Shown: positions 3,201-63,300 of the stretch, in pieces | How the letters are laid out: every line of letters starts with the position of its first letter | How positions within the stretch are numbered: the first letter of the stretch is position 1 | Assembly: GCA_905178155.1 (NCBI GenBank) | Contig: CAJINV010000027.1 | Location: 123,697-187,696 of the forward strand | Source: Amoebophrya sp. A120 | Taxonomy: Eukaryota > Protista > Dinoflagellata | Reading direction: 5' to 3' | DNA: 64,000 nt | Program-made: the position numbers and the translations under genes | The notes under the pieces: generated by a model | What the model was told of the DNA's origin: nothing | The model's database searches: none | The model's input: the letters and a program-made list of their open reading frames with translations, nothing else

Positions 3201-6200
3201 ATTTTTTTGAGTACACAAATCGACTTGTATCGCTGGAAGGCCAAGAGCCGCAGTTGTGGCCACCTCGTTTGCAGATGACAATTTGTCATGCTGTTTTTCC
3301 CACTTCCAGCTGCCTCCTGTCATGCTGAAGTAGGTGCAAGGCCTTCCCACGCCACCCAGATGAACTACAGTCCCCCGCATCTTTTCCCTCCTAGCATGAC
3401 AAAGCTGATTTGTGACCACCAACCTGCATCACAGACTTCCGTTTTGATAAGGGGAGGTTTTTCGTCTTGATACAGCAGAAGAGCAAGCTAGCAGTCCGGC
3501 TCTTCCACCACGACCCCTACTAGCGAGCCCGCCAGCTGCCCCGGCCTCCTGTCTGGAAAATAAAGCGTCGACAGTGGCAGCTTTTGGTGCACCTCCTCCA
3601 CACGGACCACCATGTGGTCTAACTGCGGTGGGACAACAAGCCGCGGAGAGGGACATCAAGACGGGCATGACCACGCGCTCCAGTGACATTTTTACCGGCA
3701 ATATGGAGAGAAAAAAGTTTGTCACAGTCACTAAGTTGCAGGGTTGGCATTACAAATTTTTTTTGCATCACAACTTCTCCTTGCATTGCACAAACACTAG
3801 AAAAATCCCTTATGAAGTGTGGCTGTGATGCATTTTTACGCATGACGGACAATTTTGTCTTGCAAAAGTGCCCATGAGTGATCGTGACGAACTTTTTTCT
3901 TTTGATAGGCAATGAGGCTGCTTCATCGGCCGTGGGAGGTTGTCCACGCAGTCGTCGGGGAGAAGAAGCGCAGGGCGCCGCCCACCACAGCAAGGAAATA
4001 AATAGCCGGGCGGACCAAGAAGCAGCTGCTGCAGCCACGACTAGTACCGCAGCCGCCTGCCCCCGTCCTGTCAACCTCCCTGCTTCTTCCCCTGCTGTTG
4101 CCGCCGGTGACTCGGCTGCGACGCCAGCTCGCAGATCCGGTAGTACAGCTAGCAGCGCCGCCTACAACGGGGGGGGTTCTGGTTCTCAGGTTGCATGTGC
4201 TGGCCTGCGGCCCCCAGTTCCCGGTGGCGAAAATGGAGGAGGTGGCTTTGTCCCGCCCTGCGTCCCCCACGTTTTGTCCGTGCAGCAGCGGCGGTGGCTG
4301 ACTGGGCACTTGAATGTCGCAGCAGCAGGGGGGCTCCAATATGGCCTGGAACCTGATGGCCCAGTGCAGCAGCAGCAACAGCCCCCACGCGAACCACATG
4401 GCCCGGGACCTGATGGCCCAGTGCAGCAGCAGCATATGACAGTGCACAACTCCCCCTCCCCCTCATTTGTATAGCATGAATGGCTATACAAGCATCAGCA
4501 AGAATGCCGGTTTTGCATGACAGTTTTGCACTGGAGTGTAATGCTATTTGGGCTACCGGAACTTGTCATGCAAAAAGTGCCAAGAGGCAACGGGTGGACT
4601 AGGTATTTTGCATGACAAATGAGGGGGAGGGGGGGTTGTGCACTGTCATACAGCAGCCGCAGCCCCCACAAGGTGGGCAAATGGATGAGATTGCTCAGCG
4701 CCCAAATGGAGTTGGCCATGGACCCCCTCGTCTTCTACCAAATGTAAAAATGTCTGGGTCTGAAAACTTGTGATGCTGGGTGGCGTCTCATGATGAGGCT
4801 ACAGATGCTGGCTCAGCATGACAAGTTTCTGAGCTCCTAGCTGTTGCCTATTCTGCATGACAAACTGCGAATCTGCATCACAGAAAAACGGGGGTCTTGG
4901 GTAACGTGCATGACAGATTTAAGAGTCATGCCAGGCAAGCATGACAAACATGAATTCTTCCAGACCCAGACATTTTTATCTTCTACCTGCAAACAAAACC
5001 CTTCCAGGGCCAGGGGCTCTCGCGTCTGTCGGCCGGCCCGCCAACGGGACGCCCATCACGACCCACGGGACGCCCATTTCTGGAGTGGTTCTTCGCGACC
5101 CTCCGGGAGCGGGCGGCCCTGCTTCTGTTGCAACGGTTTCGGCTCCACCTAGCAGACCCGCCCGGCCGCAGGTTTGTGAAGAATTTGACACCGTCTGGGA
5201 CCTCATCCGGAGAAGTCCCGCGGCCCTGGAACACGCCAGCGAGGCTTGTATGGCTTGCTCAGATGTTACAGTCTCAAACGTTCTTCCATACAATAGAGTC
5301 GGTATTTTGTATTGCATGATGAGCATGACAGACTCGCAGAGCGTTTCATTTTCTGCAATACAATTTTTCCTGTGCGGTTTGGGGTTCGAAAACTTGTCAT
5401 GCGCATCAATGCTGGGGGACTAGTTGTAGGTTAAATCATCTGCGCTTGGTGCATCACAGATTTTCAGATTCTATCGTGGCGCTTGAGATTTTTGCAACAC
5501 CTGAGCAGGTTATAGCTTGTCGCGACAGCTTCTACCTGGTGCTGGAAGCCGTGCGGTTTGAGGAAGTTCCGATGTTGTCTGGAGGCACGGAGCAACATGA
5601 TGATCCCAGCGACCAGAAACCTCCCCTCGTTTTCGGGCTTCTTCGGTTTGCTTCAACCCGGTTGCAGGACCACGGAGAGATCGTGTTTCCCGCGGTAAAG
5701 CGCGTGGCGCACAATCTCAAGTTCGCCTCGGCGCGGCTGCGGGACGACAAAAATCTGGTCGTGATCGCCGTCACAGGAGGTGTTGGCGCAATGCTGGAGT
5801 TCGCCTCTGCCCGCCTACGGGGTATCCTGAGTAAAAACGTACCCACACCAGAGTCAGGATGAGGATTTTGCAACACAAACCTAGGAGTTTTGTGAGTCAC
5901 GCATGACAAGCTGCACTTTGCAGTGTAGTGCAGGTTAGCAAGTGCAGCCGCATCACAGATTCATCTGCTCATCCTGTTCACAGCATCACAAATTCCAAAA
6001 CACGATTGGAAATGGCTCTCATGGGGATGCGCATTACAAGTCTTCCTGTCTTTGCAAATCTGCATTACAACTCTGGTGTGGGTACGTTTTTACTCAGGAT
6101 ACGGGGAGATCGCGACGTAGTTCGCTTGGCGATCGACAACGAAGTAGATACAACAAACACCGCTCCTCCCCTATCAAATGCAAGAGTGTCTGGGTCTGGA

Positions 6201-8037
6201 AGAATGCAACTTGTGATGCCGCGTTTGGATGTCTAAAAAATTTGTGTTGCATGAGCGGGAAAAGGATTGCAATTTTTGCTACGCGGAGAGGGCATTTGTC
6301 ATGCGGAATAGGCATCGAGAATCCCTCAAAAAACCTGTGATGCTAGGGCATGCATGACAGACATCATGGGTCATGCAAACCGTGCATGACAAGTCTCAGA
6401 ATTTTCCAGACCCAGACACTTTTACACTTGATATCCCCAAGAGGGAGGGATAGCAGACACAAGTAGCGACTGCGTCGCGCTGAAGTTTGCTTCGTCAGAT
6501 TATGCAAGAAAAAAGCTGTGTAAGTGTAAATCTGTGATGCAGAAAATGCAAAACAGTTTACACTTGTCATGCTCAACATGCGTGATCGGCTTGCTTCCTA
6601 TGTGTTTTCCCTTCCTATCTGCGCATAACAAGTTTTTCCTCTCATGGCAGACAAACTTGTAATGCTGTTTTCCCAAAAGACCATACACTAACACAGTTTT
6701 TTTCTTGGATACAGATTTGCAGGCGGACCGGGAGCTGGGCCTGGTTGCGGTGAAGCGGTGCGGCCGGGCGCTACGGTTTCTGGATTTCGTATCCTGTGCA
6801 AAAGTATCGTACTCGTATAAATGCATTACTAATTTCCTCAGCATGAGAAAGAAAATTTGTAATGCGGATTTGCCTCAAGAAAAATATTTGCAATGCAAGA
6901 CTTGCATTTATACGAACACGATACTTTTGCACAGGATATTTCGCGTTGCGTGACGACGACGAGGTGTGCCGAGAGGCGATTGCACAAGACCGCACTGTAT
7001 CAAATGCAAAAGTGTAGTCTGGGTCTGGAAAAGTGTAGACTTGTCTTGCAGATTTTCCATGACCCATAAGGTCTGGAATGCGGGACTTAGCATGACAGAC
7101 TCTGCGAGGTCTTTTCCATGCCTATCCTGCATGAGAAACTCCTTTCCAACTTGGTCAAAAGTGTACCGCTTTTGGCACTCATGCAAAGCAGACTTTTGCA
7201 TACTTCAGATTTACCATGACAAGTTGCAATCTTCCAGACCCAGACATTTTTGCAGTGCATACACTGCCCTTGATTTCACGTCCGAGCGTTTTCGCGACAG
7301 CCATAACCAGGCAGAGCAGAGGGCCACGACCCTTGCCTGGGTGGTTACCGGGGTCGCGATAGGTCTCGCTACTCTGGCGCTCCTGGTCGCTGTGTTTATT
7401 CTGGTGCGGTGGTGCGCGACCAGAAGCGCTGCTGCTGAGCGCTCGCAGGAGAAAGGAGTCGTGGCTGCTGGCCCAGGAAAGGTAAGATTCGATATGCGGC
7501 AGCGTCGGTTTGTCCGGACAAAAGTACTAAAACCTAATGAAGTTTGTAGCCCCGCCGCGGCGCCTCCGTCGGAGCCGGTGGTAGCGCGCAAAGGCCGCAG
7601 AGACCACAGGAATCCCGACCAAGCTGTAGTACTTCTACCGAGCAAGGACAACGACCAAGCTGGAGGAGAACAACGACAAAGGCAGCCAAGTAGCGCACCA
7701 ACAACATCGCAGCAGCCCCCGGCGGCCAATGACAAAGGAGGAGGACGCGCGGGAGGTAATGCGAGCTCCGCTGCAGTTATGCAATGTAAATTAAAATTTC
7801 CCGTACATGTACAAAATGCATGACAAATTTTCGCTAACTTGCAGTGGTCAACTTGTCATGCTAGACTAGGATTGAAGGCAAGTTTTGTCATGCAGAGACT
7901 GCATTTGTACTTGTGCGGGAAATTTCCTGTGGATAGCAGTAGATGCAGAAGATGAAGAAGCACCTGCGGGAAAAATCAAAGAGCCTTTCGTGTTCGATCA
8001 TGCGCCGCAGGTACAACGAACACTACCTAATATTTGA
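298..8037 (+). CDS. Multi-exon gene (~1396 aa after removing 15 introners): DUF4116-like repeats, C-terminal TM helix, possible N-terminal signal
   Basis: Removing each element + 5 nt keeps one open frame (7740-3549=4191 nt, divisible by 3). Repeats such as LKFASARLRDDKNLVVIAV, LEFASARLR|GDRDVVRLAI, LKFASSD|LQADRELGLVAV span the junctions; TM LAWVVTGVAIGLATLALLVAVFILV. Start and last exon uncertain. Confidence 0.75.
1959..2108. mobile_element. Introner family B
   Basis: TIR; DR agcga/agcga. Confidence 0.9.
2131..2465. mobile_element. Introner family C (TIR TAT..AGGAAAAATCCCCCCTCCCC)
   Basis: TIR; DR tggag/tggag. Confidence 0.9.
2506..2760. mobile_element. Introner family A (TIR TATCAAATGYAAAAATGTCTGGGTCTGGAA)
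   Basis: TIR; DR decayed (gggtc/atagc). Confidence 0.85.
2919..3068. mobile_element. Introner family B
   Basis: TIR; DR cggag/cggag. Confidence 0.9.
3143..3472. mobile_element. Introner family C
   Basis: TIR; DR cagca/cagca. Confidence 0.9.
3702..3907. mobile_element. Introner family F (TIR TATGGAGAGAAAAAAGTTTGTCAC)
   Basis: TIR; DR ggcaa/ggcaa; sibling at 20496. Confidence 0.9.
4435..4650. mobile_element. Introner family G (TIR TATGACAGTGCACAACTCCCCCTCCCCCTCATTTG)
   Basis: TIR; DR cagca/cagca; sibling at 17006. Confidence 0.9.
4736..4978. mobile_element. Introner family A, right TIR missing ~9 terminal nt
   Basis: DR tcttc/tcttc. Confidence 0.85.
5249..5514. mobile_element. Introner, singleton (TIR TATGGCTTGCTCAGATGTT)
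   Basis: Imperfect TIR; DR gcttg/gcttg. Confidence 0.85.
5823..6101. mobile_element. Introner family E (TIR TATCCTGAGTAAAAACGTACCCACACCAGAGT)
   Basis: Perfect 32-bp TIR; DR cgggg/cgggg. Confidence 0.92.
6172..6433. mobile_element. Introner family A
   Basis: TIR; DR tcccc/tcccc. Confidence 0.9.
6501..6711. mobile_element. Introner family I (TIR TATGCAAGAAAAAAGCTGTG)
   Basis: TIR; DR cagat/cagat. Confidence 0.88.
6790..6938. mobile_element. Introner family B
   Basis: TIR; DR tttcg/tttcg. Confidence 0.9.
6998..7261. mobile_element. Introner family A
   Basis: TIR; DR cactg/cactg. Confidence 0.9.
7778..7935. mobile_element. Introner, singleton
   Basis: Imperfect TIR (aaatttcccgtacatgtaca / tgtacttgtgcgggaaattt); DR gcagt/gcagt. 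Confidence 0.85.
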
Positions 8038-16209: not shown

Positions 16210-16850
16210 TAAAATCCAAAGAAATCCGTGGAGCACGACATCTGTAGAAGATGACAGCAGCGCGCAAGAATCGGTAACAAAATGCGTTCCCTGCCTAGAG
16301 TGAGTGCTGACCCGGGATCGTGATCGGTAACAAAATGCGTTCCCTGCCTAGTGTGAGTGACCCAGTACTACGGAAGCCATGAGCAAGAACATGAAGAGCT
16401 GTCAAATCTAGGGCGTCCAGCGCTTCAGGGGACAGTCGAGGTTTTTGTCAGCCTCCTGCTTCACAAAAACACACAGCCTCTTACTTCAAACAGTGCAGGA
16501 GTAGAAATCTTTTACCCCGACAAAACAAAGACGCCTCAGAATCCGCATTAGATCGAGGCATACATCTTCTATCTTCATCCCGTACAGGATTTTTCAGTTC
16601 CAGGCACTAGTTTTGCTATAATATCGCTTTTATATATCGCCAGGCACTAGTTTTGCTATAATATCGGCATCGCTATTTATATTTTTTGAAGTGGTCGTGC
16701 GTCAGCATCAGCAACTTTAATATTCCTTCGTCTCGGTCGGAGTCGCAGGAGGACATATCAGTGGCCCAACTGATTGTGATTGTGCATCACAGTAAAGAAT
16801 ATAGAAAAAGTAGAAGGAGGTCGTAGAGGAGATCGCTAGCCGCCGACATC

Positions 16851-19800
16851 ATGAAGTTTTTTCTTATTTTCGTTCTCGCTGCGACAGAATGGGTCGGGGC
16901 CTCGGCCTCCGGGCGGAAAGCGCCGCTCGTCCTGTTTCCGCCATCTCCTGCTGAAGGTAAAGGTAGTGGAAGGCACAGCGCAGGTAGTGGAAGCCGCAGC
17001 GCGAATAGGAGATTGCACAACTCCCCCTCCCCCTCATTTGTATTGCATGAGCGGCAATACAAGCATCAGCCAGAATGCCGGTTTTGCATGACAAATTTGC
17101 ACCGCCGGAGAAGTGTTGTGCTATTTGGGCTACCAGAGCTTGTCATTCAAATAGTGCCGCAAGGCAGCGTCAGCGAATAACGCAGGCACTTTGCATGACA
17201 AATGAGGGGGAGGGGGGTTGTGCACTCTTATATCGAGCCGCAAGCAGAGACAGAGTTCTCGCAGCGCCAGTGTGGCGAGTAGTAGTCGTAGTAGTAGCAG
17301 CAAGTACGAGGAGGGAGTCTATGAAAACGTCAGAATCGAAATGGACAAAATCGAAAAATTTGTGATGCACAAAATCGATGTGGTCAGTTGGAGTCTCAGT
17401 TCCCAACTGGCGCATGACAAATTTCGGGAGCACCCAAATCCAGTCTGTCGTGCTGTTTGGGCAAAGAAGACTGCTCCTGTCGTGTTACTCTGGTGGCAGC
17501 ACATCGCGCACCCCTCAACAGGCTTACAATTGGTCTTATTTGCCTGCTTCCCAATACAGGCCGCCAGTGCCTTACATTTTATGCATCACAAATTTTTCGA
17601 TTTTGTCCATTTCGATCCTGACACATCCATACAGTCGCTTCGCTCGCAGAGACGTTTCGCGAAATCGCGAAGGAAATGGCCTTGGCCATATGCATTGGAA
17701 ATTAATATGTCCTCTGGGTCTCCCGGAAAGATTGGAACTTGTGATGCGTATTTCACGACACACAAACTTTTCATGCATAGGCACCAAAAGTACAAGTGCC
17801 CCACTTCGCGGCATCGAAATAGAGAATTAATGATGCGGATTACGCATAATTTTGCGGAACCGTCTCAAAGCCTGTTAAAAAGAGGCCAGGGCTTCCAGCA
17901 TGCCAGACGTTCCGAGTGAGTCATGGAAAAACAGCATGACAGAAATGAAATCTGCAATCTTCCACACCCCGACTCAGACATACTTATTTGCATTTGATAG
18001 GCCACGACCCCGGACGGCGGGCCCGCCAAAGACCGAAGAACCGTTCTGGTCGCGTTCAGTGACGGAAGCAGTAATAGTGAACAAGATAGCAGCGACGGGA
18101 GCAGTGACAGAAGCCGTGACAGAAGACAGGACCACACTGGTGCGGTCGCGTCGTACGCAGTGTACGCCCAATCGTACGAGATCAAACGATATGCATTGCA
18201 AATATGTTTGGATCTTCTGGAAGGATGCAGCTTGTCATGCTAGATCTGGATCATGCAAGAATTTGTGTTGCACGATTACCAAACGCGGTGCACTTTTGAC
18301 CAAGTCGAGAGGGAGTTTCGCATGTAGGATAGGCATCCATGATACAGATCTCAGAGAACCTGTCCTCGTGCTCGGTCCTGCATTCCAGAGCCCATGGAAA
18401 TGGGCCACCACGTTAAACCTGCATGACAAGTCTCTTCATCTTCCAGACCCAGACATTCTTGCAATCCATAAAAGAGTGCGGGACGATTACAAGCGCAAGC
18501 CTGAGGGCTTGAGCGGGTATGTGCTCGATCTGGAAAGCACGGAGTGCGCCTGCAGGCCCTGTAAGTTCGTCGTTTCGCTGGCTACAAGCAAGGCGGTCAA
18601 TGATGATGCAAGGTTGGGCAGCACGTCCACGTTCGTGACGGCTCAAAAAACTCACTCCCTGGCCGAGCTGCTGACGCGCACCGAAACGGCCCTCGTTGAA
18701 AGTTTCCGCTTCGACAACCCCAGTGAGAAGGTTGCGAGTACGTTGGCGGCCCAGTACCAGCTTGCAAAGCTCTTCCGGGAGATGTTTTTCCAGGATAACC
18801 GCTGGCGGCACGAGGTGCTTTATAACACCAAGCTATCGACCGGGCAGAAGGAGTTTAGTAAGGCGGTGAAAGATTTTCACCCGAAGCTGCTGCTCGACGC
18901 CGGTTTCTCTTCGATGAACATGAAGCAGGCAGATTTCGTTTCCATCCGAGAGTTTTTTCTGCCGTCTCACGTAGACTTTGGCCGCAGCACGACGGACCCC
19001 TCTCGGTCCCGCTCCCGTTCCGCGTCATCAGAATCTGTGCGGAGCAGTGCGCGCGAGACGAAACCCGACCAGGGGCCCTCCACGTCGTACCCGGCGATAT
19101 TCAAACGACGACAGGAGGGAAGCTCGTTGGAGCTCTCGTCCGTGGCCGAGCTCCGGGGAGTGGCGCTTGCGGTCGCAGTCTTCGCTCGTCACGTCCGTGG
19201 TAGGGGGACATCCACGTTGATGGAGGGGCTGCCTCTCGACCACATCGTTTTCGCTTGCGACAACAAGCTGGCGCTCGAAGAAATTCGGTTTGGGTGGCGC
19301 AACGCTGCCAAGCGTTCTTCGGGACCGATGAAGCCCGCCTTCGCCGTGCCCCACGAGTTGGTGCAGCAGGTTGTCGAGCACTTGGCGTTCCTGGCCCAGG
19401 AACACGGCGATGCTTTTTACCGTTTCGCCTGGCAGCGCGCGGGGCACGAGCGAAAGCACCTTAGCTCCGAAGAGAAGTTTTTTTACGCCTCAGCGCAGCG
19501 GGTCGCCGACGCGGGCGCGCGGCTTTTCCGGAAAGCGGTTGAAAGCCCCGAGTGGGCTTTGGCGGTGCCTGAACGGAGCAGAGACAATTTGGGAGTCGCC
19601 AACGCATTCCGAGAAACATTTTTGTGCATGAGCGAGGACCGGCTCCAGACCGGCATCGTCGCCGGCCTGGCTTTTTTCAAACGCAACAGCGGCCAAAAAG
19701 CGATGGGTACTACGAATTTGTTCACGCTGGGAGCAGGGGTGGATCCGGACCCCGTCGCAGCTGCAGAGCTTTGCGTCGGCTCCTGTGTGTCAGGCTCTCG

Positions 19801-22235
19801 TGTGGCGCTCGCCACACTAAGTTCTTTTGGAGACGCATGTCGCGACGGACGGCCGGCGACCTGGTTTCAGGAGGAGTTAGGCAAGCCCGCGACGGCGGCC
19901 GCCTTTCCGCACTCTTTGTCGACGATCCAGAGTGAGGTGGGCGCCCCGTCGTCCTCTGTTGATGTGGGAAACCTCTGCGACGTAGCGGATGCGGAGCCGG
20001 TTTTGCGCAGGAATAGGGGGGACCCTGAAATCACGATCGCACGGGCACGCGACCCGAGGGGGCGATCGGCTACGCGCCCCGGAGGAGCCCCCCGCGCCAC
20101 CGGGTTGCCCAGGCACCGTCTCGGACCGGTGCCGGAAAACGTCCAAACTTGGCCGCTATCAAATGTAAAAATGCCTGGGTCTGGAAACTTGTGATGCTGG
20201 GCGGCGTCTCGTGATGAGCATGAGGCCACAAATGCTGGCTCAGCATGACAAGTTTCTGATTCTGAGCTTCTAGCTTTTGCCTATTCTGCATGACAAACTG
20301 CGGTGCTGCATCACAGAAAATAAATGGAGCTCTTGTAATATAACGTGCATGACAGATTTGTAGAGTTATGCCAGGCAAGCATGACAAACATACATCCTTC
20401 CAGACCCAGACACTTTTGCACTTGATAGCCGCAGGTAGTAGGCTACACGCCACAACCTCCACTGTCCCAGTTCTTAGTACCCGTAGTGTATCCGGTATGG
20501 AGAGAAAAAAGTTTGTCACAGTCACTAACTTGCAGGTTTTGCATGACAAATTTTCTCAGCATCACAAACTTTCCTTGTATTGCAGAAACACTAGGGAAAT
20601 CCGTAATGAAGTCTTGCTGTGATGCATTTTTACGCATGACAAACAATTTTGTATTGCAAGAATGCGCATGAGTGATCGTGACGAACTTTTTTTCTTTGAT
20701 ATCCGGATGGGTCGATGTACACCGGGTTCTTCTGGGATGTATAAAATGTAAAAATGTCTGGGTCTGGAAGAATGCAACTTGTGATGCTGCATCTGGATTC
20801 CAGAAAAATCTGTATTGCATGAGTACCAAAAGGAATGGAATTTTTGCTACGCCGAGGGGGCATTTGTCATGCGGAATAGGCATCAAGAAGCTCTCAAAAA
20901 ATCTGTGATGCTAGGGCACGCATCACAAACATCAGGCCTCATGCAAAACGTGCATGACAAGTTTCAGAATCTTCCAGACCCAGACATTTTTACAGTTGAT
21001 AGGATGGCAAGAGGCACGGCTGGGGTAGGCTGATGTCGCCGGACGGGCGGGTGCAGTACGATGGAGAGTGGTGCGGCGGCAAACGACACGGCTCTGGCGT
21101 GGGCACGTATACGGATGGGTCGAAGTACAACGGGAAGTGGCAAGACGACAAGCTGCACGGCTGGGGTACGCTGATGTCGCCGGACGGGCGGGTGAAGTAC
21201 GCTGGAGAGTGGTCCGGCGGCAAACTACACGGCTCTGGCGTGTACACGTATAAGGATGGGTCGACGTACAACGGGGAGTGGCAGGACGACAAGAGGCACG
21301 GCCACGGCGTGAACGAGTATCCGGATAGGTCGAGGTACAACGGGAAGTGGCAGGACGACAAGAAGCACGGCCAGGGCCTGCACACGTATCCGGATAGGTC
21401 GAGGTACAACGGGAAGTGGCAGGACGACAAGAAGCACGGCCAGGGCCTGCACACGTATCCGGATAGGTCGAGGTACAACGGGAAGTGGCAGGACGACAAG
21501 AAGCACGGCCAGGGCCTGCACACGTATCCGGATGGGTCGACGTACAGTGGCGAGTGGCTGAACGACAAGCGCAGCGGCCAGGGCCTGCACACGTATGCGG
21601 GCGGGACGACGTACAGCGGGGAGTGGCTGAACAACAAGCGCAACGGCCAGGGCCTGTACACGCATGCGGACGGGTCGACGTACAGCGGCGAGTGGCGGGA
21701 CGCCAAGAGGCACGGCCAGGGCGTGAACAAGTATCCGGATGGGTCGACGTACAGTGGCGAGTGGCTGAACGACAAGCGCAGCGGCCAGGGCCTGCACACG
21801 TATGCGGACGGGTCGACGTACAGTGGCGGGTGGCTGAACGACAAGCGCAGCGGCCAGGGCGTGAACGAGTATCCGGATGGGTCGACGTACAACGGGAAGT
21901 GGCGGGACGACAAGAGGCACGGCCACGGCCTGCACACGTATGCGGACGGGTTGACGTACAGCGGGGAGTGGCGGGGCGACAGGAGGTACGGCCAGGGCGT
22001 GAACAAGTATCCGGATGGGGTGACGTACAGCGGGGAGTGGCGGGGCGACAGGAGGTATGGCCAGGGCGTGAACAAGTATCCGGACGGGTCGACGTACAGT
22101 GGCGGGTGGCTGAACGACAAGCGCAGCGGCCAGGGCGTGCACACGTATGCGGGCGGGACGACGTACAGCGGGGAGTGGTTGGACGACCACCGACACGGCC
22201 AGGGCCTGTACACGGAGACGAATGGCCGGACATAA
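16851..22235 (+). CDS. 1159-aa protein: signal peptide + RNase H-like domain + ~18 MORN repeats (7 introners)
   Basis: Spliced length 3480 nt, open. N-term MKFFLIFVLAATEWVGASA; RNase HI-like motifs VAFSDGS, SSVAELRGVALAV, IVFACDNKLAL, FAWQRAGH, QRVADAGAR; MORN repeats YxGEWxxDKRHGQGxxxYPDG. Confidence 0.8.
17006..17232. mobile_element. Introner family G
   Basis: TIR; DR gcgaa/tcgag. Confidence 0.88.
17320..17631. mobile_element. Introner family D
   Basis: TIR; DR gagtc/cagtc. Confidence 0.9.
17689..17999. mobile_element. Introner family A-like, degenerate
   Basis: DR ggcca/ggcca. Confidence 0.85.
18190..18470. mobile_element. Introner family A
   Basis: TIR; DR aacga/aaaga. Confidence 0.88.
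20157..20427. mobile_element. Introner family A
   Basis: TIR; DR gccgc/gccgc. Confidence 0.9.
20496..20701. mobile_element. Introner family F
   Basis: TIR; DR tccgg/tccgg. Confidence 0.9.
20702..22220 (+). repeat. MORN repeat array (69-nt/23-aa units)
   Basis: ORF 21033-22235 is a tandem of 23-aa units, some identical at DNA level; the first unit is split by introner 20740-21001. Confidence 0.95.
20740..21001. mobile_element. Introner family A
   Basis: TIR; DR ggatg/ggatg. Confidence 0.9.
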
Positions 22236-25071: not shown

Positions 25072-28000
25072 ATGGTTATTTATCGCTCGATATCTCGGGA
25101 AGAGCTCGGCGAGCATGCGACTCGCCAGGATTGCTGGATTGCGCTTCACGGTTGGGTCCTGAGAGTCGACGCGAAGACGCTTCAGGAGCACCCGGGCGGC
25201 GCGCAGTCCATTCTTCGGTTATGGAAGTGTCACAATCGAAATTGACAAAATCGAAAAACTTGTGATGCATAAAATCGATACCAGTTGGAGCCTCAGTTTG
25301 CAAGCGGCGCATGACATCAAATTTCGGGAGAACCCAAATCCAGTCTGTCATGCTGTTTGGGCAAAGAAGACTGCTCCTGTCATACTACTCTGGCAGCACA
25401 TTGCATACCCCGCCGAAACAGGCTTACAATCGGCCTCATTTATTGCCTGCTCCCCAATACAGGCCTCCAGTGCCCTACGTTTTATGCATCACAAATTTAT
25501 TTTCGACTTTGTCGATTTCGATCCTGACACATCCATCCCGGTTTGCCGGCACGGATTGCACAACCCCGTTCGAGGATGCAGGACACAGTATCCTGAGCAA
25601 AAATGTACCCACCCCAGAGTTGTCATGCAGATTTGCAGCTACAGGAAGATTTGTAATGCGCATACACATGAGAGGCATTTCCAATCAGGTTTTGCGCTTT
25701 GCAATGCTGTCGACAGGATGAGTAGATGGATTTGTGTTGCGGCTGTGCTTGCTAAACTGCACTACAATACCTAGACGAACTTGTCATGCTGGACCCCCAA
25801 AACTTCTCGATTTGTGTTGCGAAATCCTCATCTTGACTCTGGTGTGGGGACGTTTTTACACAGGATACCGAGTGACTTTGCGCGCGACTGGTGCAACCGG
25901 CTCGAAGTGATGGGGCAATTTTTCGATGTGGATGAAAATGAGAAACAGAGCGGGGCAGCTTCTTGTTCTACGAGAAGATCCTTTTTGAAGAGCAACGATG
26001 ATATAATTAGCAATATGGAACAAGAAGAGCAGCCACGGAAGAAGATTCCTGGCGTAGTAGGGCGACACCACGACTTGGAGATGAGCAGTCAGAGATCACC
26101 TACTGTTCCCGAGGACCACCTCCAGGACCACCCGTTGCAAGAAGTAGAAGGCGCAGCACGACATTATGGCGTTCTCAAATGTTACATTCTCAACTGTTAC
26201 ATGATTTGTCATGCAAAACGAGCATCAACGTCCACAAAATGAAGCTACTTCGCATGACAAATTTTGGAAGGGCTAAACGGGATGAGAATCTATGCCGAAT
26301 TTGTAATGCAAAAGTTGCAAGACCCGGCCTTTCCCCGTTGCCATTCTTGCATCACAAATTCATGTAACAGTTGAGAATGTAACAATTGAGAATCCCATAG
26401 AAATCAAGTTCCGGTCCGCATTGCTCGCATGTTTGTGTACCCGATCAAGGCTTGCGCAGGAGTGGAGATCGACCGTGCAGTTATGACCAAGCACGGGGGC
26501 GGGTTTGCGCACGACCGCGAGTACGTTTTCGCGGCCGAGCAAGATGAAGACGAAGAGCAATTTCATAATACGGAAGAACATCAACTTCTGCTCCCGGACG
26601 AGGACGAGAAGACGGAATCAAATACAAATGGTTGTACAAAAAATGCGAAACGAAGATTTTTGAAGCTGCTCGTGCCGTACGATTTGCCTGCACTCGCTTG
26701 GTATCAAATGTAAAAATATCTGGGTCCGGAACAAAGCAACTTGTCATGCTAAATCTGAATCATGTAAAAATCTGTGTTGCATGATTACCAAAAGCGGTCC
26801 GCTTTTGACCTAATCGAGAGGCAGTTTCTCATGGAGGAGAGGCATTGGAAAGGTTTCGCAGAACCTGTCATGCTATGTCCTACATACCAGACCTCATGGG
26901 TTATGGAAAACCTGCATGACAAATCTGGCAATCTTCCAGACCCAAACATTTTTACATTTGATACCTGGATCCAACCGTCTTTGCCCACTTCGAAGGGGAT
27001 GCAGATTGAGCTGCGGAATTATAACAGTAGTGCGGGTCAAGAACATCCTCTGGCGGAAGTAGATGACAGTTTTTTCGTCCCAAGGATCAGCAGTGCAAAG
27101 GATGGAACATCAAAGAGGTACGTCAACATGTACAAGAAGTGCTTGCTGGAGGGGATCGACCAGGGGGATGCGGTGGCAGACCGCGTCACAAAATTTCTCC
27201 ACCACCATCATCCGGAGGTGGTGGAAAACTTAGCTCTACGTCATGGCAAGAACGACCAGGAAGGAAAAAATTCTAACCAGCAGCACAACACGAACACCAG
27301 CAAAATTATCCGGCTGTTGCTGCTGACCGACCGGTCTCTGCTGCATCCAGAGACCGTCCACATATCAAAAGTAAAAATGTCTGGGTCTGGGAACTTGTGA
27401 TGCTGGGTGGCGTCTCATGATGAGGCTACAAATGCTGGCTCAGCATGACAAGTTTCTGAGCTCCTAGGTGTTGCCTATTCTGCATGGCAAACTGCGCTTC
27501 TGCATCACAGAAAAGCGGAGCTCTTGGGTAACGTGCGTGACAGATTTAAGAGTCATGCCAGACAAGCATGACAAACATGAATTCTTCCAGACCCAGACAT
27601 TTTTACAGTTGATACCACACCGGGCTCTACCACCAGCCGCGGGGCGGATCGAACTACACTCCGTTTATGTTTATGCGCGAGCAGACGTTGGCGGCAATCA
27701 ACCGAAAGTTTTTTCCCACTGAGCCGTTGCGGGTCACGATTTTGCGGTTTCGCCCGAACATCGTCTTTCGCGAGGAGGATGTTGAAGCTGAGGTACTAGC
27801 ACGACTATCTCGTGGTTCCCGTCCAAATGGAGTAGAACAATTCAGTTGTCCAACATCGTCTGATTTCTCTTTTTCCGAGGATTCTTGGGAGACGGTCGAG
27901 CTGCGGCACCAGCTATGGATTGTAAAAATGTCTGGGTCTGGAAGGTTGGAACTTGTAATGCTAGCTTTCCATGCCTAGAAAATCTATATTGCATAACCAA

Positions 28001-30478
28001 TAAAAGTCGCAGCCTCTTTTGTCATGCAAAAACTCAGTTTCTCATGCGGATTGCCTATAAGAAAGCGTTTTGGGAAGTTGTCGTGCCGGACTGCATTCGG
28101 AAGTGTTTGCATCATGCACATTTTAGCATCACAAGTTTCCAGACCCAGACATTTTTGCATTTCATACCAGCCGTCGCGCTTTTTGCGGGTGCTGAAGTCC
28201 TGCGGGCGGTGCAGCCACATCTTCGTGAACCCCGCACTTGCCGTCTGCGACGGGGACTTTGTGCAGAAAGAGCTCTGCCGACTGGGCCGCGATGCCCGGG
28301 GGATGCTGGACAAGTTGGAGAGTAAGCTTCATCTGCTAAAGAACAAGTCGAAGATTTTTGCAACAACAGCTATTGGTCGTCGTGGAGACGTCGAGCAAGA
28401 AAACCCGGTCCTCGCAAGAATAAATTCTACCTCGGTACTAGTTGATCCCGTGCTCCCGTGGTTTCGAAGCCACTACCAGAAGTTTTTGGACGCGGGGCGG
28501 ACGACAAAGGTGTTTCTCGGGCTCTGCGGCTCGTTTCACAGTGAAGGAGATTATGCCGATGCCCCCTCCAGAAGAAGTTCTTCTACATCAGACTGCGTTA
28601 ATATTTTCCACGTTGGACAGGAGTGGGTCGCGAACCTGTCGACCACCCGGTCGCTAAACGAGTTCCGCTCCGAGATGCTGCGGCCTTGCCAAGACAACCG
28701 GGCGCTGCTGGAGAAAACGCGTCCCATCGACTTGCTCTGTGCCTACGGACCAGATTTCTTGCAGGTTGTTCCTACACGGCAACAAAACAAAAATTTGAAC
28801 ATTGGTGAAGACGATGAAGCTGCTCCTGCACCAGATCCGGGCGAAGAAGAAGTGGATGAGCCCGCAGCTAGTAGAACTACAACTATATCTTCTCTGCTTG
28901 AAGATGAAGATGTTTTCTTGCCGCAAACGCCGGCTTTCGAACGAAATACACGGCGTCACGTCACGGTGACCGAGGTGGTCGAGCTGTCACGCACGGCGAA
29001 GCGGATAAGGTTCAGCTTCGGAGATCATGTTGCTGGCCCTCGTTCTCCATCTCCAACTACTTGTGCGCCCATACCGCCGCCGGCCGCATTGGGTCTCCTA
29101 TCAAATGTAAAAATGTCTGGGTCTGGAAGATTCCGAGATTTGTCATGCAGTTCTTCCAAGCTCCACCAAGTCTGGAATGCAGGGCATAGCATCAGAGGTT
29201 CTGCAGCCCCTTGCTGATGCCCATTATGCATGAGAAATGCCCTCTGAGCATGGCGAGAAATGGGGACCTTTTGCAAGTCATGCAACACAGATTTTTGTAT
29301 CATACGCAACACGCATCACAAGTTCGCATTCTTCCAGACCCAGACATTTTTACATTTGATATCTCCCCTGCGGCTACCACGTGGCGACTTTCGGCGAGAA
29401 CCCAGCTTTTGCGCGCTCAACGTGGAATAAACAGCCGCAGTCGGCCGCGGAGAAATATGGAAGCGTCAGGTTTGAAATCGTCAAAGTTGAAATAGTTTGT
29501 CATGCATAAAATGCAGCCCCCAAAGTGCCTGTCTTGCAGAGTAGGCAAGTGAGGCAGATTGTAAGCCTGTTGAGGGGTAGAAGCTGAGTTGCTAAAGTAG
29601 CATGACAAAAGGCGTCTTTCTTACCCAAACAGCATGACAAACTGGATTTCGGCTCTACCCAAATTTGTCATGCGCCACTTGAAAACTGGGTCACAACTTT
29701 GATCCATTTTATGCATGACAAATTATTTCAACTTTGTCGATTTCAACTCTGACACATCCATAAGAAACTCACGCCTTTTATCAAAAGGTCCTTTACCCCC
29801 GTCCGGTGCGGAAAAGGGTTTTTCGACCTGGTGGTGAAAATATATCGGATGAAGAACAGCAAAGGGGCAGACGAACAACAGGATGATGAAGAGGGAAATA
29901 TCAATGCCTTCCCCGATGGCGGTCGTCTTACGGGTCATTTCCTGGATCGCTTGGTGGTGAATGACAAAGTCCAGATCGCCGGTCCGTTTGGCCACATCAG
30001 GTACCTGGGCGACGGGAGGTTTCGACTTCTAAGTGGTCTATGTGGTAGTAAACCAGAGGACCACCGCCCCAATATCAGAAAATTTTCGCAAGTGGGGATG
30101 GTCGCTGGCGGCTCCGGGATCACCCCGATGCTGCAGGTCTTGCAGTTTGCGGCAGCGGAAGCCGGACCTCCTCCTTTTCAGGCACACCTGGTGTATGCGA
30201 ACAAAACGGAGGAGGACATACTATGCCGGGAGTGGATAGAGTCAGACCACTGTCGCAAGGTACTGCTGGGAAGAAATACATCACGCGGCAGCAGTAGAAC
30301 GAAGTATGTAATTTCGGCGAAAGGCGAAAGAATCTGCGAAGAAATATTCAAAAACCACTTACCACCCCCTCACGCGGAGACGCTTGTATTGCTGTGCGGC
30401 CCCCCCGGTATGGTAGCGGCAGCGCGGAATTTTCTGCGGAATCTCGGCCACGAAGCGGAGCAAATACACGAATTTTGA
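25072..30478 (+). CDS. 1065-aa fusion: cytochrome b5 + MOSC_N/MOSC (mARC-like) + cytochrome b5 reductase FAD/NAD domains (8 introners)
   Basis: Spliced length 3198 nt, open. b5: DCWIALHG, EHPGG, AGTDCTTPFEDAGHS. MOSC_N: MFVYPIKAC, HDREYVF, DQGDAVADRVTKFL. MOSC: RFRPNIVF, SEDSW, KSCGRC..VNP. Reductase: LGLPCGYHV, RSFTPV, FDLVVKIY, GPFG, VAGGSGITPMLQ, YANKTEEDIL, CGPPGM, terminal F. Confidence 0.9.
25220..25537. mobile_element. Introner family D
   Basis: TIR; DR tcggt/ccggt. Confidence 0.9.
25589..25867. mobile_element. Introner family E
   Basis: TIR; DR cacag/ccgag. Confidence 0.9.
26165..26399. mobile_element. Introner, singleton (TIR TATGG..TTCTCAA.TGTTACATTCTCAACTGTTACATGA)
   Basis: ~40-bp TIR; DR gacat/gaaat. 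Confidence 0.9.
26702..26963. mobile_element. Introner family A
   Basis: TIR; DR cttgg/cctgg. Confidence 0.9.
27363..27614. mobile_element. Introner family A
   Basis: TIR; DR ccaca/ccaca. Confidence 0.9.
27914..28166. mobile_element. Introner family A
   Basis: TIR; DR ccagc/ccagc. Confidence 0.9.
29099..29361. mobile_element. Introner family A
   Basis: Perfect 32-bp TIR; DR tctcc/tctcc. Confidence 0.92.
29456..29762. mobile_element. Introner family D (reverse orientation relative to 11459)
   Basis: TIR; DR agaaa/agaaa. Confidence 0.9.
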
Positions 30479-60303: not shown

Positions 60304-63300
60304 ATGACGCGTTCTCCGGTAACCCCTCCCGGCGCGGTTTCTGGTGCCAGCGAGGCGGTGCGGCAGCACAACGAAAAATTGATGATGGCCAACAAGAAGT
60401 GCAAAACAGGCCTTTTCGGAGGTGTCTCGGTAGTTGCGAAAAAGTACTCTCCCGCGGTCGTGATGGTAGTCGCCGTGGCGTACTACTACTTCTCTACCCT
60501 CAGTCAGCACCCAGACTCCTTGCCGGAGCACGAGGTAGTCGTTGTAGACCACGGAAATAAAGTAGACAATTCCACCGCGATGAATAAACCAAGCACAGAC
60601 CCATCAACTTCAACAACTCCGTTCGTATTGCGAGATGAAAACTACAAAAACCACACGACGAACGACACAGCTTTGAGGAAAATGATGGACAACAACAAAA
60701 CCCGGAACACGACCACTCCCCTGGACGCTTACCTCCTCAGCATTCTTGCCGAGCAGCAGAAGTACACAAACCTGTTCACCTGGCTGAAAACCGACTGCTA
60801 TCATAGTGAAAAAAACCACCACAACCCCATATTCAAAAGACATAATTTGTGTTGCTGGTTTTGGGTACACAAAGGAACTTTGTATTGCAGCAAGATCTTG
60901 TCGGCATATTCAGTAAGCCCATTTTTTGGGTACTACGCATCCGGCTAGTGCAGCTGAGCATGAGAAACAAGTCTGACCTTAGGCGAAAGCGCATGACAGA
61001 CTTGCTGCACACTGCGCCACATGGGTGCAGCCGTTTGCGTTGTACGCAAGACAAAGTAGCGGATTTGTCGTCACAAATCAGCAACACAAATTCTCTTTTC
61101 GATATGGGGAGGGGGGATTTCTCCTTACGATAACTGCAGCGCGGTCGGCTTGGACAACGTCAGAATCGGATACGCAACCTACTTATCAAATGCAAATATG
61201 TCTAGGTCTGGAAACCTGTGATGCTGATTTGCTGCTGGCTGCAACGCTTGCCATCGCAGCCACGCATAACAACTTTTTGAAACGCCTTCTGATGATCATG
61301 TCCTGCCCGCATTACAAATTTTTGCGTTTTCGCATGACAAAGGAAGCGGCGCTTCTGCTGCTCACGCAACACAGATTTTCTAGGAATTCAAGACACGCAT
61401 TACAAGTTCCACTCTTCCTGACCCAGACGTATTTGCAGTTGATACGAGACCGCTAGAAAAAAAGCTCCTATGCGCGGACTTGTGGCTGCGAAAGATTTGC
61501 GCGCCGGAGAGGACATTGCCTGCATTTCAAGGATATCAAATGTAAAAATGTCTGGGTCTGGAAGAATGCATGTTTGTCATGCTTGTCTGGCATGACTCTT
61601 GAATATGTCATGCACGTTACCCAAGAGCTCTATTTTTCTGTCATGCAGAAACGCAGTTTGTCATGCAGAATAGGCAACACCTAGAAGCTCAGAAACTTGT
61701 CATGCTGGGCCCGCACTTGTGGCCCCATGTTGATACGCCACTCAGCATCACAAGTTTCCAGACCCAGACATTTTTGCATTTGATAAAGGAAGTGCTGGCT
61801 CGGCCCGATCAATATGCCGAAGCGGTACGAATATCAAATGCAAATGTGTCTGGGTCTGGAAGATCTGTCATGCTAGTCTGGCATGACTGTCAACTCTGTA
61901 TTGCGTGCCCGCATCAAAGAGCTCCTCTCACCTGTCATGCAAAAATGCAGTTATTTCTCATGCGGAGTACGCAACTCTGAACCACGGAAGAACTTGTCAT
62001 GCTGGGCAGTGCATTACAGTGTGCTCACTATTTCCTTCCTTGCATCACAACTTTCCAGACCCAGACATTTTTGCAGTTGATAACGAAATGTTGACGAAGA
62101 AGTACCCGGAGGAGTGTTCGACTCGGTCCCCGTTCTCCCTTTGGGTCGCAGAAGAAATGGCCCAAAAGCGCGAAGCTTCGGCGTTTAAGCACTATTTTCC
62201 GATGCTGATGTCCGCGGAAGACTACCTGCGCTATCAACTGTAAAAGTGTCTGGGTCTGGAAGGTTGGAACTTGTGATGCTCACTTTGGATTCTAAAAAAA
62301 TCTGTATTGCATGACCAGCAAGTAGAGAGGTCTCGCTTCTGCTACGTGGGGAGGGCATTTGTCTTCATGCGGAGTAGGCATCAGGAAGCTCTCGAAGAAC
62401 CTGTGATGCTAGGTCGTGCATTACAGACATCCCGGGGCATGCAAAATATGCATGACAAATCTCAGAATCTTCCAGACCCAGACATTTTTACATTTGATAT
62501 GCGCAGCGGTCACCCCATGTACTGGCTGGACGGTGCTGCGCGCGAACTCCGGATCAAGCTGCAGCGGAGGAACAGCACGGAATATCCTGCCCAAAAATCT
62601 CTCCACACCATAGTCAAGTTGGTAAGAGAGTTGTGCATGACAAGTTTCCATCTGCAGTGTAGTGCTGGTTAGCTAGGGAAACCGCATGACAAAGCCACTT
62701 TCTAATCCTGTTTACAGCATTACAAATGACAAACACGATTGGAAATGCCTCTTTTGGAGATGCGTATTACAAATGTTCCCGCCATTGCGCATTGGCATGG
62801 CAACTCTGGGGTGGGGACGTTTTTGCTCAGGATACGGAAGGAGGGAAAATGGAAAAGCGTACACAACAAAACGCGGCAAAAACTACAACAAGCACCGGCA
62901 AAAAAAATGAAGAATATCTAGTGCAAATATATCTGGCTCTGGAAGACACTAACTTGTGATGCTAAGTCTACACAATGTAAAAATCTGTGTTGCATGACTG
63001 CCAGCAGTTGTCCACTTTTGACCAAGTTGCGAGGGAGTTTCTCATGCAGAACCGGCACGGCAGAGATGTCGCAGAATCTGTCATGCCAGGTCTTGCATTC
63101 CAGACCTCATGGGTCATGGAAAATCTGCATAACAAGCTTCCACGCTTCCAGACCCAGACATATTTGCATTTGATAAAACAACGGATGCAACGACGACTAC
63201 AGCGGTGCATCTTCTCTCCAGCGAGCAAGAAGACTCCGTCCGCCCCTGGATGCCACCGCACATATCAACTTGAAAAGTCCCCCCTCCCCATACTCAAGGG

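Follow-up and report, generated by a model that had tools for sequence, protein, structure and literature searches.

The MORN1 proteins of Toxoplasma gondii, Plasmodium falciparum and Trypanosoma brucei (PDB 6t4r, 6t6q, 6t69, 6t4d; PMC7725318) contain long arrays of 23-residue repeats with the pattern YxGxWxxxxxHGxG. In the abstract of PMC7725318 the MORN repeats are described as protein-protein interaction modules, and the MORN1 proteins as dimerising via their C-termini. MORN1 proteins consist of MORN repeats only, carry no signal peptide and are cytosolic. The introner elements of Amoebophrya, as described by Farhat et al. 2021 (PMC7789003), are introns whose splice sites are non-canonical, whose boundaries are overlapped by direct repeats of 3-5 nucleotides (nt) and whose ends carry inverted repeats of 8-20 nt. 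A third described system, bacterial and cellular RNase HI (E. coli rnhA, PF00075) together with RVT_3 (PF13456), is characterised by the residue order Asp-Glu-Asp-His-Asp. Here we describe a gene of Amoebophrya sp. A120 that can be compared with all three. It occupies positions 16851-22235 on the + strand of a 64,000-nt stretch of contig CAJINV010000027.1 (hereafter the window), which is nuclear DNA of this syndinian dinoflagellate parasite. The gene encodes a protein that is best explained, with a probability of about 0.55, as a secretory-pathway protein built of an 18-repeat MORN rod and an orphan central domain, the latter only possibly with an RNase H-like core.

Removal of seven introns leaves eight exons (Table 1) joined in one open frame of 3480 nt, which encodes 1159 amino acids (aa) and has no internal stop. 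The start codon (ATG, 16851-16853) is the first in frame after an upstream stop at 16824-16826, and the frame ends with TAA at 22233-22235. An earlier model-made interpretation of the DNA letters (the sequence-only reading) had proposed that excision of seven introners fuses three apparently unrelated open reading frames into a protein of precisely this length, and in this it was right. The locus is a single eight-exon Amoebophrya gene, split by seven non-canonical introner-type introns.

The evidence for splicing came from contigs of two public runs, X3 and X6, which contain about 0.5-0.6 of the words of the stretch. Six of the seven junctions are present in these contigs as joints: 17001>17234 (carried by an X6 contig), 17315>17633, 17683>18000, 20151>20428, 20488>20700 and 20734>21002. 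At each joint 3-7 letters fit both sides; all six sit exactly at direct repeats and preserve the open frame. A 412-nt X6 contig links exons 1-4, and a 465-nt contig found in both runs takes in the final 24 nt of exon 5, the whole of exons 6 and 7 and 345 nt of exon 8. The exon 7/8 joint was thus seen in two runs, with a short side of 35 letters. The exon 5/6 joint is also present in a public protein, P0003, which connects exons 2-7. RNA-like contigs also cover 16600-16887, upstream of the start codon, and extend past 16600, so the 5′ end of the transcript, or the 3′ end of a neighbour, must lie further upstream.

None of the seven introns has GT..AG ends. Direct repeats at the boundaries of introns 1 to 7 measure 3, 4, 5, 2, 5, 7 and 5 nt, which places six of them in the range of 3-7 nt and leaves intron 4 with 2 nt, and inverted repeats of 10-47 nt occur in all seven. 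All that defines introners was found here: the splice sites are non-canonical, the boundaries carry direct repeats, the ends carry inverted repeats and the introns are removed from RNA, the last being seen for six of the seven. Compared with the Amoebophrya introners of PMC7789003, which have the same three sequence features, the present set differs in inverted repeats of up to 47 nt and in direct repeats that are once 7 nt and once 2 nt long; nothing essential separates the two. In the 64-kb window TTCCAGACCCAGACA, a word from the inverted repeats of introns 4, 5 and 7, was counted 48 times where 0 copies are expected; the introners, like the MORN array, lie far beyond chance. Its copies mostly form facing pairs about 200-220 bp apart, for example at 2521-2745, 6187-6418, 27929-28151 and 61549-62484. 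One introner family is present in roughly two dozen copies in the 64 kb. In this region GC-rich coding blocks (GC fraction 0.55-0.68) alternate with blocks of 0.37-0.50 GC that end in inverted repeats.

Two public proteins correspond to the gene. P0003 (707 aa, 'unnamed protein product, partial [Amoebophrya sp. A120]') maps to 17206-20741 of the window and is 100% identical to the translation of exon 5. It begins in intron 1 (GLCTLISS) and reads into intron 7 (FFWDV), and therefore lacks both exon 1 and the MORN exon; this public gene model is incomplete. P0002 (1058 aa, 'unnamed protein product [Amoebophrya sp. A120]', Pfam MORN) is 53-58% identical to the window protein. It is collinear with the window: its residues 1-45 correspond to exon 1, 84-172 to exon 4, 173-754 to exon 5 and 825-1058 to exon 8. 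The order of parts is also identical, with a hydrophobic N-terminus, a Ser/Arg linker, the central domain and MORN repeats. In a word-indexed protein collection the exon 5 translation (P0001, 559 aa) had only P0002 and P0003 as relatives. The identity between P0002 and the window protein is near the mean of 48.2-51.2% given for orthologues between Amoebophrya strains in PMC7789003, and the simplest reading of the sequence comparison is that the two would be one orthologue per strain. P0002 bears a GSA120T gene id and sits on a contig of 11.76 Mb, P0003 on one of 354 kb.

The C-terminal part of the protein is a MORN array. In exon 8 Pfam PF02493 matched 17 stretches with a score of 270.6 bits, the cut-off being 22.5, and an E value of 1.2e-83. 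By regular expression residues 744-1159 comprise 18 repeats, the first of which spans the exon 7/8 junction, so that the approximately 18 repeats noted earlier are real. The straddling repeat, YTGFFWD/GKRHGWG, corresponds to YNGFLKDGKTRHGWG in P0002. The possibility, raised beforehand as one that would undermine the gene, that the MORN part is transcribed separately did not hold, as exons 7 and 8 are joined in the spliced contigs and the repeat is continued in the same way in P0002. At the DNA level Tandem Repeats Finder (TRF) reported a period of 69 bp and 14.2 copies. P0002 has nine repeats by the same expression (a spurious match at residue 662 was dropped) and seven by Pfam. The 18 repeats against nine in P0002, together with the identical 69-bp units, point to a recent expansion of the array in the window gene. 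When a profile, A1, with MORN columns from P0002 was compared with PDB, MORN1 chains were matched at E 6.8e-29 to 4.2e-25. The repeat pattern of MORN1 recurs in the window protein, which unlike MORN1 has a signal-peptide-like N-terminus and about 720 other residues ahead of the array.

Residues 1-20 read MK-FFLIFVLAA-TEWVGASA/SG, that is, MK, nine hydrophobic residues and TEWVGASA, with SG after the presumed cleavage site and small residues at positions -3 and -1. This is the layout of a Sec-type signal peptide (basic n-region, hydrophobic core of 7-15 residues, small residues at -3/-1), and the highest 19-residue hydropathy window of the protein falls on residues 3-21. P0002 begins with the same n-h-c layout, its first 13 residues being identical at 12 positions. 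The N-terminus is likely a signal peptide, as proposed in the sequence-only reading. A hydropathy scan of all 1159 aa gave no second hydrophobic stretch of membrane-spanning length. One candidate, a transmembrane helix at residues 376-394 (hydropathy 1.50), was rejected, because it has only about ten consecutive apolar residues and contains several charged ones. Residues 21-76 form a basic linker rich in Ser and Arg (45% S+R, isoelectric point 11.9).

Between linker and array lies the central region. Its best conserved part is residues 77-158 (exons 3-4), in which 73 of 83 aligned positions are identical to P0002 (88%). Within exon 4 (residues 96-158) a low-complexity, acidic, Ser-rich stretch, SSNSEQDSSDGSSDRSRDRRQD, is nearly unchanged in P0002. 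Such conservation is unusual in low-complexity sequence, the mean for the strain pair being near 50%. Residues 159-737 are 44-68% identical to P0002, depending on the segment, and could be assigned to no family. An exhaustive phmmer search found the central domain in two of 1,835,955,588 representative proteins, namely itself and P0002. A metagenome scan with A1 gave 267 pattern matches and no relative among them, and a scan with a degenerate pattern for YAVYAQSYEI gave no match. As far as sequence searches reach, the central domain is without detectable relatives outside the genus.

In the reading that we favour, the N-terminal hydrophobic stretch would direct the protein into the endoplasmic reticulum, with cleavage after Ala-Ser-Ala (residue 20). 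Having no further membrane-spanning stretch, the protein may then be lumenal, stored in a secretory organelle or released. By analogy with MORN1 (PMC7725318), the array could form an extended rod that binds partners or dimerises tail to tail. The central domain is the most constrained part and presumably provides the specific activity; a nuclease is one possibility, and any catalytic role is putative.

The strongest competitor of this reading takes the central domain to be a true RNase HI-type fold. Strands beta1-beta3 would lie in exon 4 (Asp116) and be followed by an insertion of about 266 residues, after which the part from alpha1 to alpha5 would supply Glu383, Asp420, His482 and Asp503. 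In this view an active nuclease would be secreted, with the MORN rod as its anchor, and might act on host RNA:DNA hybrids. The motif strings on which the sequence-only reading had based its RNase H proposal are present: VAFSDGS at 18049-18069, VASYAVY at 18144-18164, AELRG at 19145-19159, FACDN at 19250-19264, WQRAGH at 19430-19447 and VADAGAR at 19502-19522. They place the five candidate residues in the Asp-Glu-Asp-His-Asp order, and all five are identical in both known proteins; the alignment by which they are assigned does not reach significance. Shared with RNase HI are the contexts DGS, AEL and [ST/C]D[SN], and so is a basic stretch with GW that lies between the second Asp and the His. 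The differences are the lack of significant sequence or profile similarity, the insertion (266 residues between Asp116 and Glu383), and the 20 residues between His482 and Asp503, where E. coli RNase HI has nine. The RuvC-type RNase H fold of Cas9 accommodates a very large insert at the corresponding point of its topology, after beta3. Since a large insertion at this point is known from Cas9, the 266-residue gap alone does not exclude an RNase H fold.

Searches for the fold by similarity were negative. With P0003, P0002 and fragments as queries, the RNase_H and RVT_3 families of Pfam (PF00075, PF13456) gave no match even at E<=10. NCBIfam and PHROGs gave no RNase H match, and phmmer and profile searches of PDB returned MORN proteins and noise only. 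Comparison of A1 with the single E. coli RnhA sequence by hhalign yielded nothing. We then used an RNase HI alignment composed of E. coli and 79 of 80 bacterial loci, the remaining one (L082) being dropped for a stop or X in its translation. These loci offered slightly more breadth than a search for RnhA homologues, in which every sequence returned was a close enterobacterial one (79% identity or more); a PF00075 genome search gave the E. coli locus only. Against the RNase HI alignment hhalign assigned a probability of 0.3-1.6%, and hmmsearch with all filters off (--max) found no match.

Weak signals were obtained with alignment to a position-specific matrix derived from the RNase HI alignment, judged against composition-preserving shuffles. 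In Smith-Waterman alignment of the P0003 fragment (residues 318-478) the shuffles equalled or exceeded the observed score in 269 of 5535 cases with a gap opening cost of 11 and in 42 of 6003 cases with a cost of 8. The best local alignment of this fragment lies in the expected register, with FGWRNAAKR on the basic protrusion, YRFAWQRAGH on beta5 and the His loop, followed by ADAGA. Against this, the P0002 fragment reached a z score of only 0.4 in the same test. In an ordered test with five blocks fixed from the E. coli secondary structure and 1000 shuffles, 12 of 1000 (P0003) and 9 of 1000 (P0002) shuffles scored at least as high as the real sequence. Block 1 falls on the motif of the sequence-only reading in both proteins. 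Block 4 falls on the expected motif in P0003 and on EIRFGWSRRGSSR in P0002. Block 5 reaches the ADAGA stretch of both proteins, but its register leaves Asp134 unpaired with the candidate Asp, and neither AELRG nor FACDN is chosen by blocks 2 and 3. When the proposed register was forced, the scores were 21.8 (P0003) and 25.9 (P0002), far below the shuffle mean of about 51, a deficit due in part to the ungapped block 4, which needs a one-residue gap. As far as such sequence statistics can tell, the RNase H motif pattern would exceed chance only weakly (p about 0.007-0.05).

AlphaFold2 with the two-sequence alignment of P0003 and P0002 gave a mean predicted local distance difference test score (pLDDT) of 30.0 over 707 aa and no usable model. 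For residues 362-523 (the 162-aa fragment with P0002) the mean pLDDT was 41.3; this model was also unusable and showed helices throughout, including where beta4 and beta5 were expected. Foldseek with the low-confidence 707-aa model against PDB returned nothing at E<=0.001. In the ESM Atlas, four of the five structure rows for P0003 318-478 were RNase_H or RVT_3 clusters, with template modelling (TM) scores of 0.40-0.44 by query and 0.34-0.52 by row, and feature matches of 0.78-0.84 included RT_RNaseH, RVT_3 and RNase_H clusters. These matches are the one positive lead and come from one source, all are under the tool's own thresholds, and the Atlas model has a pLDDT of 0.33.

The RNase H fold put forward in the sequence-only reading was thus left unsupported by any significant test, fold prediction having given no usable model. 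On balance, an RNase H-like fold in the central domain is a tentative suggestion that we consider more probably wrong than right. The complete RNase HI-type reading set out above is unlikely, and an active secreted nuclease equally so or less. Less probable again is a secreted nuclease that joins a split RNase H fold to an 18-repeat MORN rod and that the parasite, intranuclear or intracellular, would turn against host RNA:DNA hybrids or chromatin. An RNase H-MORN effector architecture of this kind matches no described family in the libraries searched, and an effector role is inference only. The analysis gave no indication of a retroelement origin of the central domain, so the idea of a domesticated retroelement RNase H found nothing to lean on; if anything, the faint similarity would point to RNase H of the cellular type, the one that has a basic protrusion.

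A different view of the N-terminus leads to the second alternative, in which it is not a cleaved signal peptide and the protein remains on the cytosolic side as a MORN scaffold at membranes or the cytoskeleton, of the MORN1, radial-spoke or junctophilin type. The Ser/Arg and acidic Ser stretches would then be phosphorylated regulatory linkers. The solved MORN proteins matched in PDB are cytosolic, flagellar or junctional by name, and stretches rich in Arg and Ser are a typical mark of proteins of the nucleus and cytosol. The conservation of the first 13 residues goes beyond that of usual signal peptides in a pair that is 53-58% identical. On the other side stands the textbook n-h-c layout, located at the very N-terminus in both proteins; hydrophobic N-termini of this kind are normally recognised co-translationally. 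We judge the scaffold to be improbable, somewhat more so than the RNase HI-type reading.

The third alternative is a fusion artefact, in which the MORN exon, or else exon 1, would be part of a neighbour gene and the contig joints would be mis-assemblies among introner copies. It could draw on the ends of P0003 (ahead of the MORN exon and inside intron 1) and on two chimeric joints that show mis-joining to be possible. It is largely refuted and very improbable, given the exon 7/8 joint in two runs, the MORN repeat that this joint completes as in YNGFLKDGKTRHGWG, the existence of P0002 as one protein of 1058 aa that has the same N-terminus and a MORN tail, and the exact fit of all six joints to direct repeats, with the frame left open. 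The two chimeric joints, 18213>20179 and 18389>20967, run from introner copy to introner copy, and 37 foreign letters intervene in one of them. Rather than splicing, they look like chimeras made in assembly from repeated introners.

Several points weigh against the reading as a secretory-pathway MORN protein and against the gene model beneath it. The RNA status of X3 and X6 is guessed, and among their contigs no single transcript runs across all eight exons. The X3 and X6 contigs contain no joint for intron 4 (18190-18475), whose junction, YEIKR/VRDDY, was taken from P0003. The short side of the exon 5/6 joint has 24 letters, under the 31-letter bridging rule of the mapping tool. The unusually strong conservation of the N-terminus is also compatible with a signal anchor or some other targeting signal, and to our knowledge the MORN proteins studied to date are cytosolic. 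P0002 and the window protein are possibly a paralogous pair, both records being labelled alike. Two raw RNA runs with the same species label, X10 and X11, contributed only four and two partial reads, respectively, in bins dominated by introner repeats; they may represent another strain or another stage.

Table 1. Exons, introns and repeat features of the MORN gene (window positions)
Feature	Position	Strand	Description
Exon 1	16851..17001	+	Start codon; signal-peptide-like residues 1-20 (16851-16910); onset of Ser/Arg-rich linker; P0002 residues 1-45 (tblastn)
Intron 1	17002..17233	+	Introner type; CG..AT; direct repeat 3 nt; inverted repeat 19/19
Exon 2	17234..17315	+	Ser/Arg-rich linker
Intron 2	17316..17632	+	Introner type; AG..AC; direct repeat 4 nt; inverted repeat 45/47
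Exon 3	17633..17683	+	Contig joints on both sides
Intron 3	17684..17999	+	Introner type; GG..TA; direct repeat GGCCA, 5 nt
Exon 4	18000..18189	+	Most conserved part, 88% identical to P0002; VLVAFSDGSS (candidate Asp116, codon 18061-18063); conserved acidic Ser-rich stretch; AVASYAVYAQSYEIKR
Intron 4	18190..18475	+	Introner-like; TA..GA; direct repeat 2 nt only; TTCCAGACCCAGACA word at 18441-18455
Exon 5	18476..20151	+	Orphan central domain; candidates Glu383 (19148-19150), Asp420 (19259-19261), His482 (19445-19447), Asp503 (19508-19510)
Intron 5	20152..20427	+	Introner; GC..TA; direct repeat GCCGC
Exon 6	20428..20488	+	Micro-exon, 61 nt
Intron 6	20489..20699	+	Introner; TA..GA; direct repeat TATCCGG
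Exon 7	20700..20734	+	Micro-exon, 35 nt; first MORN repeat starts at Tyr744 (20718-20720)
Intron 7	20735..21001	+	Introner; GG..TA; direct repeat GGATG; inverted repeat 30/32
Exon 8	21002..22235	+	MORN array; 17 Pfam stretches, 18 repeats counting the one begun in exon 7
Perfect period-69 stretch	21317..21533	+	217 bp: three identical 69-bp MORN units plus 10 bp

Elsewhere in the window an open frame at 29753-30475 (+) contains FAD_binding_6 and NAD_binding_1 (E 1e-16) and encodes an oxidoreductase of the ferredoxin-reductase type. Of 14 long open frames outside the gene, no other had a Pfam match.

Both MORN proteins and Amoebophrya introners are on record already. What is new is a protein that unites a likely signal peptide with a genus-restricted region of 660 residues and 18 MORN repeats. 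Among the matches listed in a literature search none concerned an Amoebophrya MORN protein, judged by titles and the beginnings of abstracts. No Amoebophrya protein paper was found for signal peptide plus effector, and a search for secreted dinoflagellate MORN proteins returned an oomycete only. In the main text of PMC7789003 the terms 'morn' and 'rnase h' occur 0 times; its supplements could list this gene. Unless the nuclease fold is confirmed, the outcome is above all a corrected gene model, along with a candidate secreted protein.

The locus shows how annotation splits introner-rich genes in Amoebophrya. Without proof of a nuclease, the protein is one more lineage-specific protein of a genome in which, following PMC7789003, domains are assigned to only 6-8.5% of the predicted proteins. 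Should its conserved, genus-restricted central domain turn out to be an RNase H-like nuclease, the protein could be counted among candidate effectors directed at host nucleic acids. If the signal peptide is real, the gene would place the MORN repeat, which is usually cytosolic, in the secretory pathway of a parasite, and such a secretory MORN protein would be a candidate component of an invasion organelle or of the host interface.

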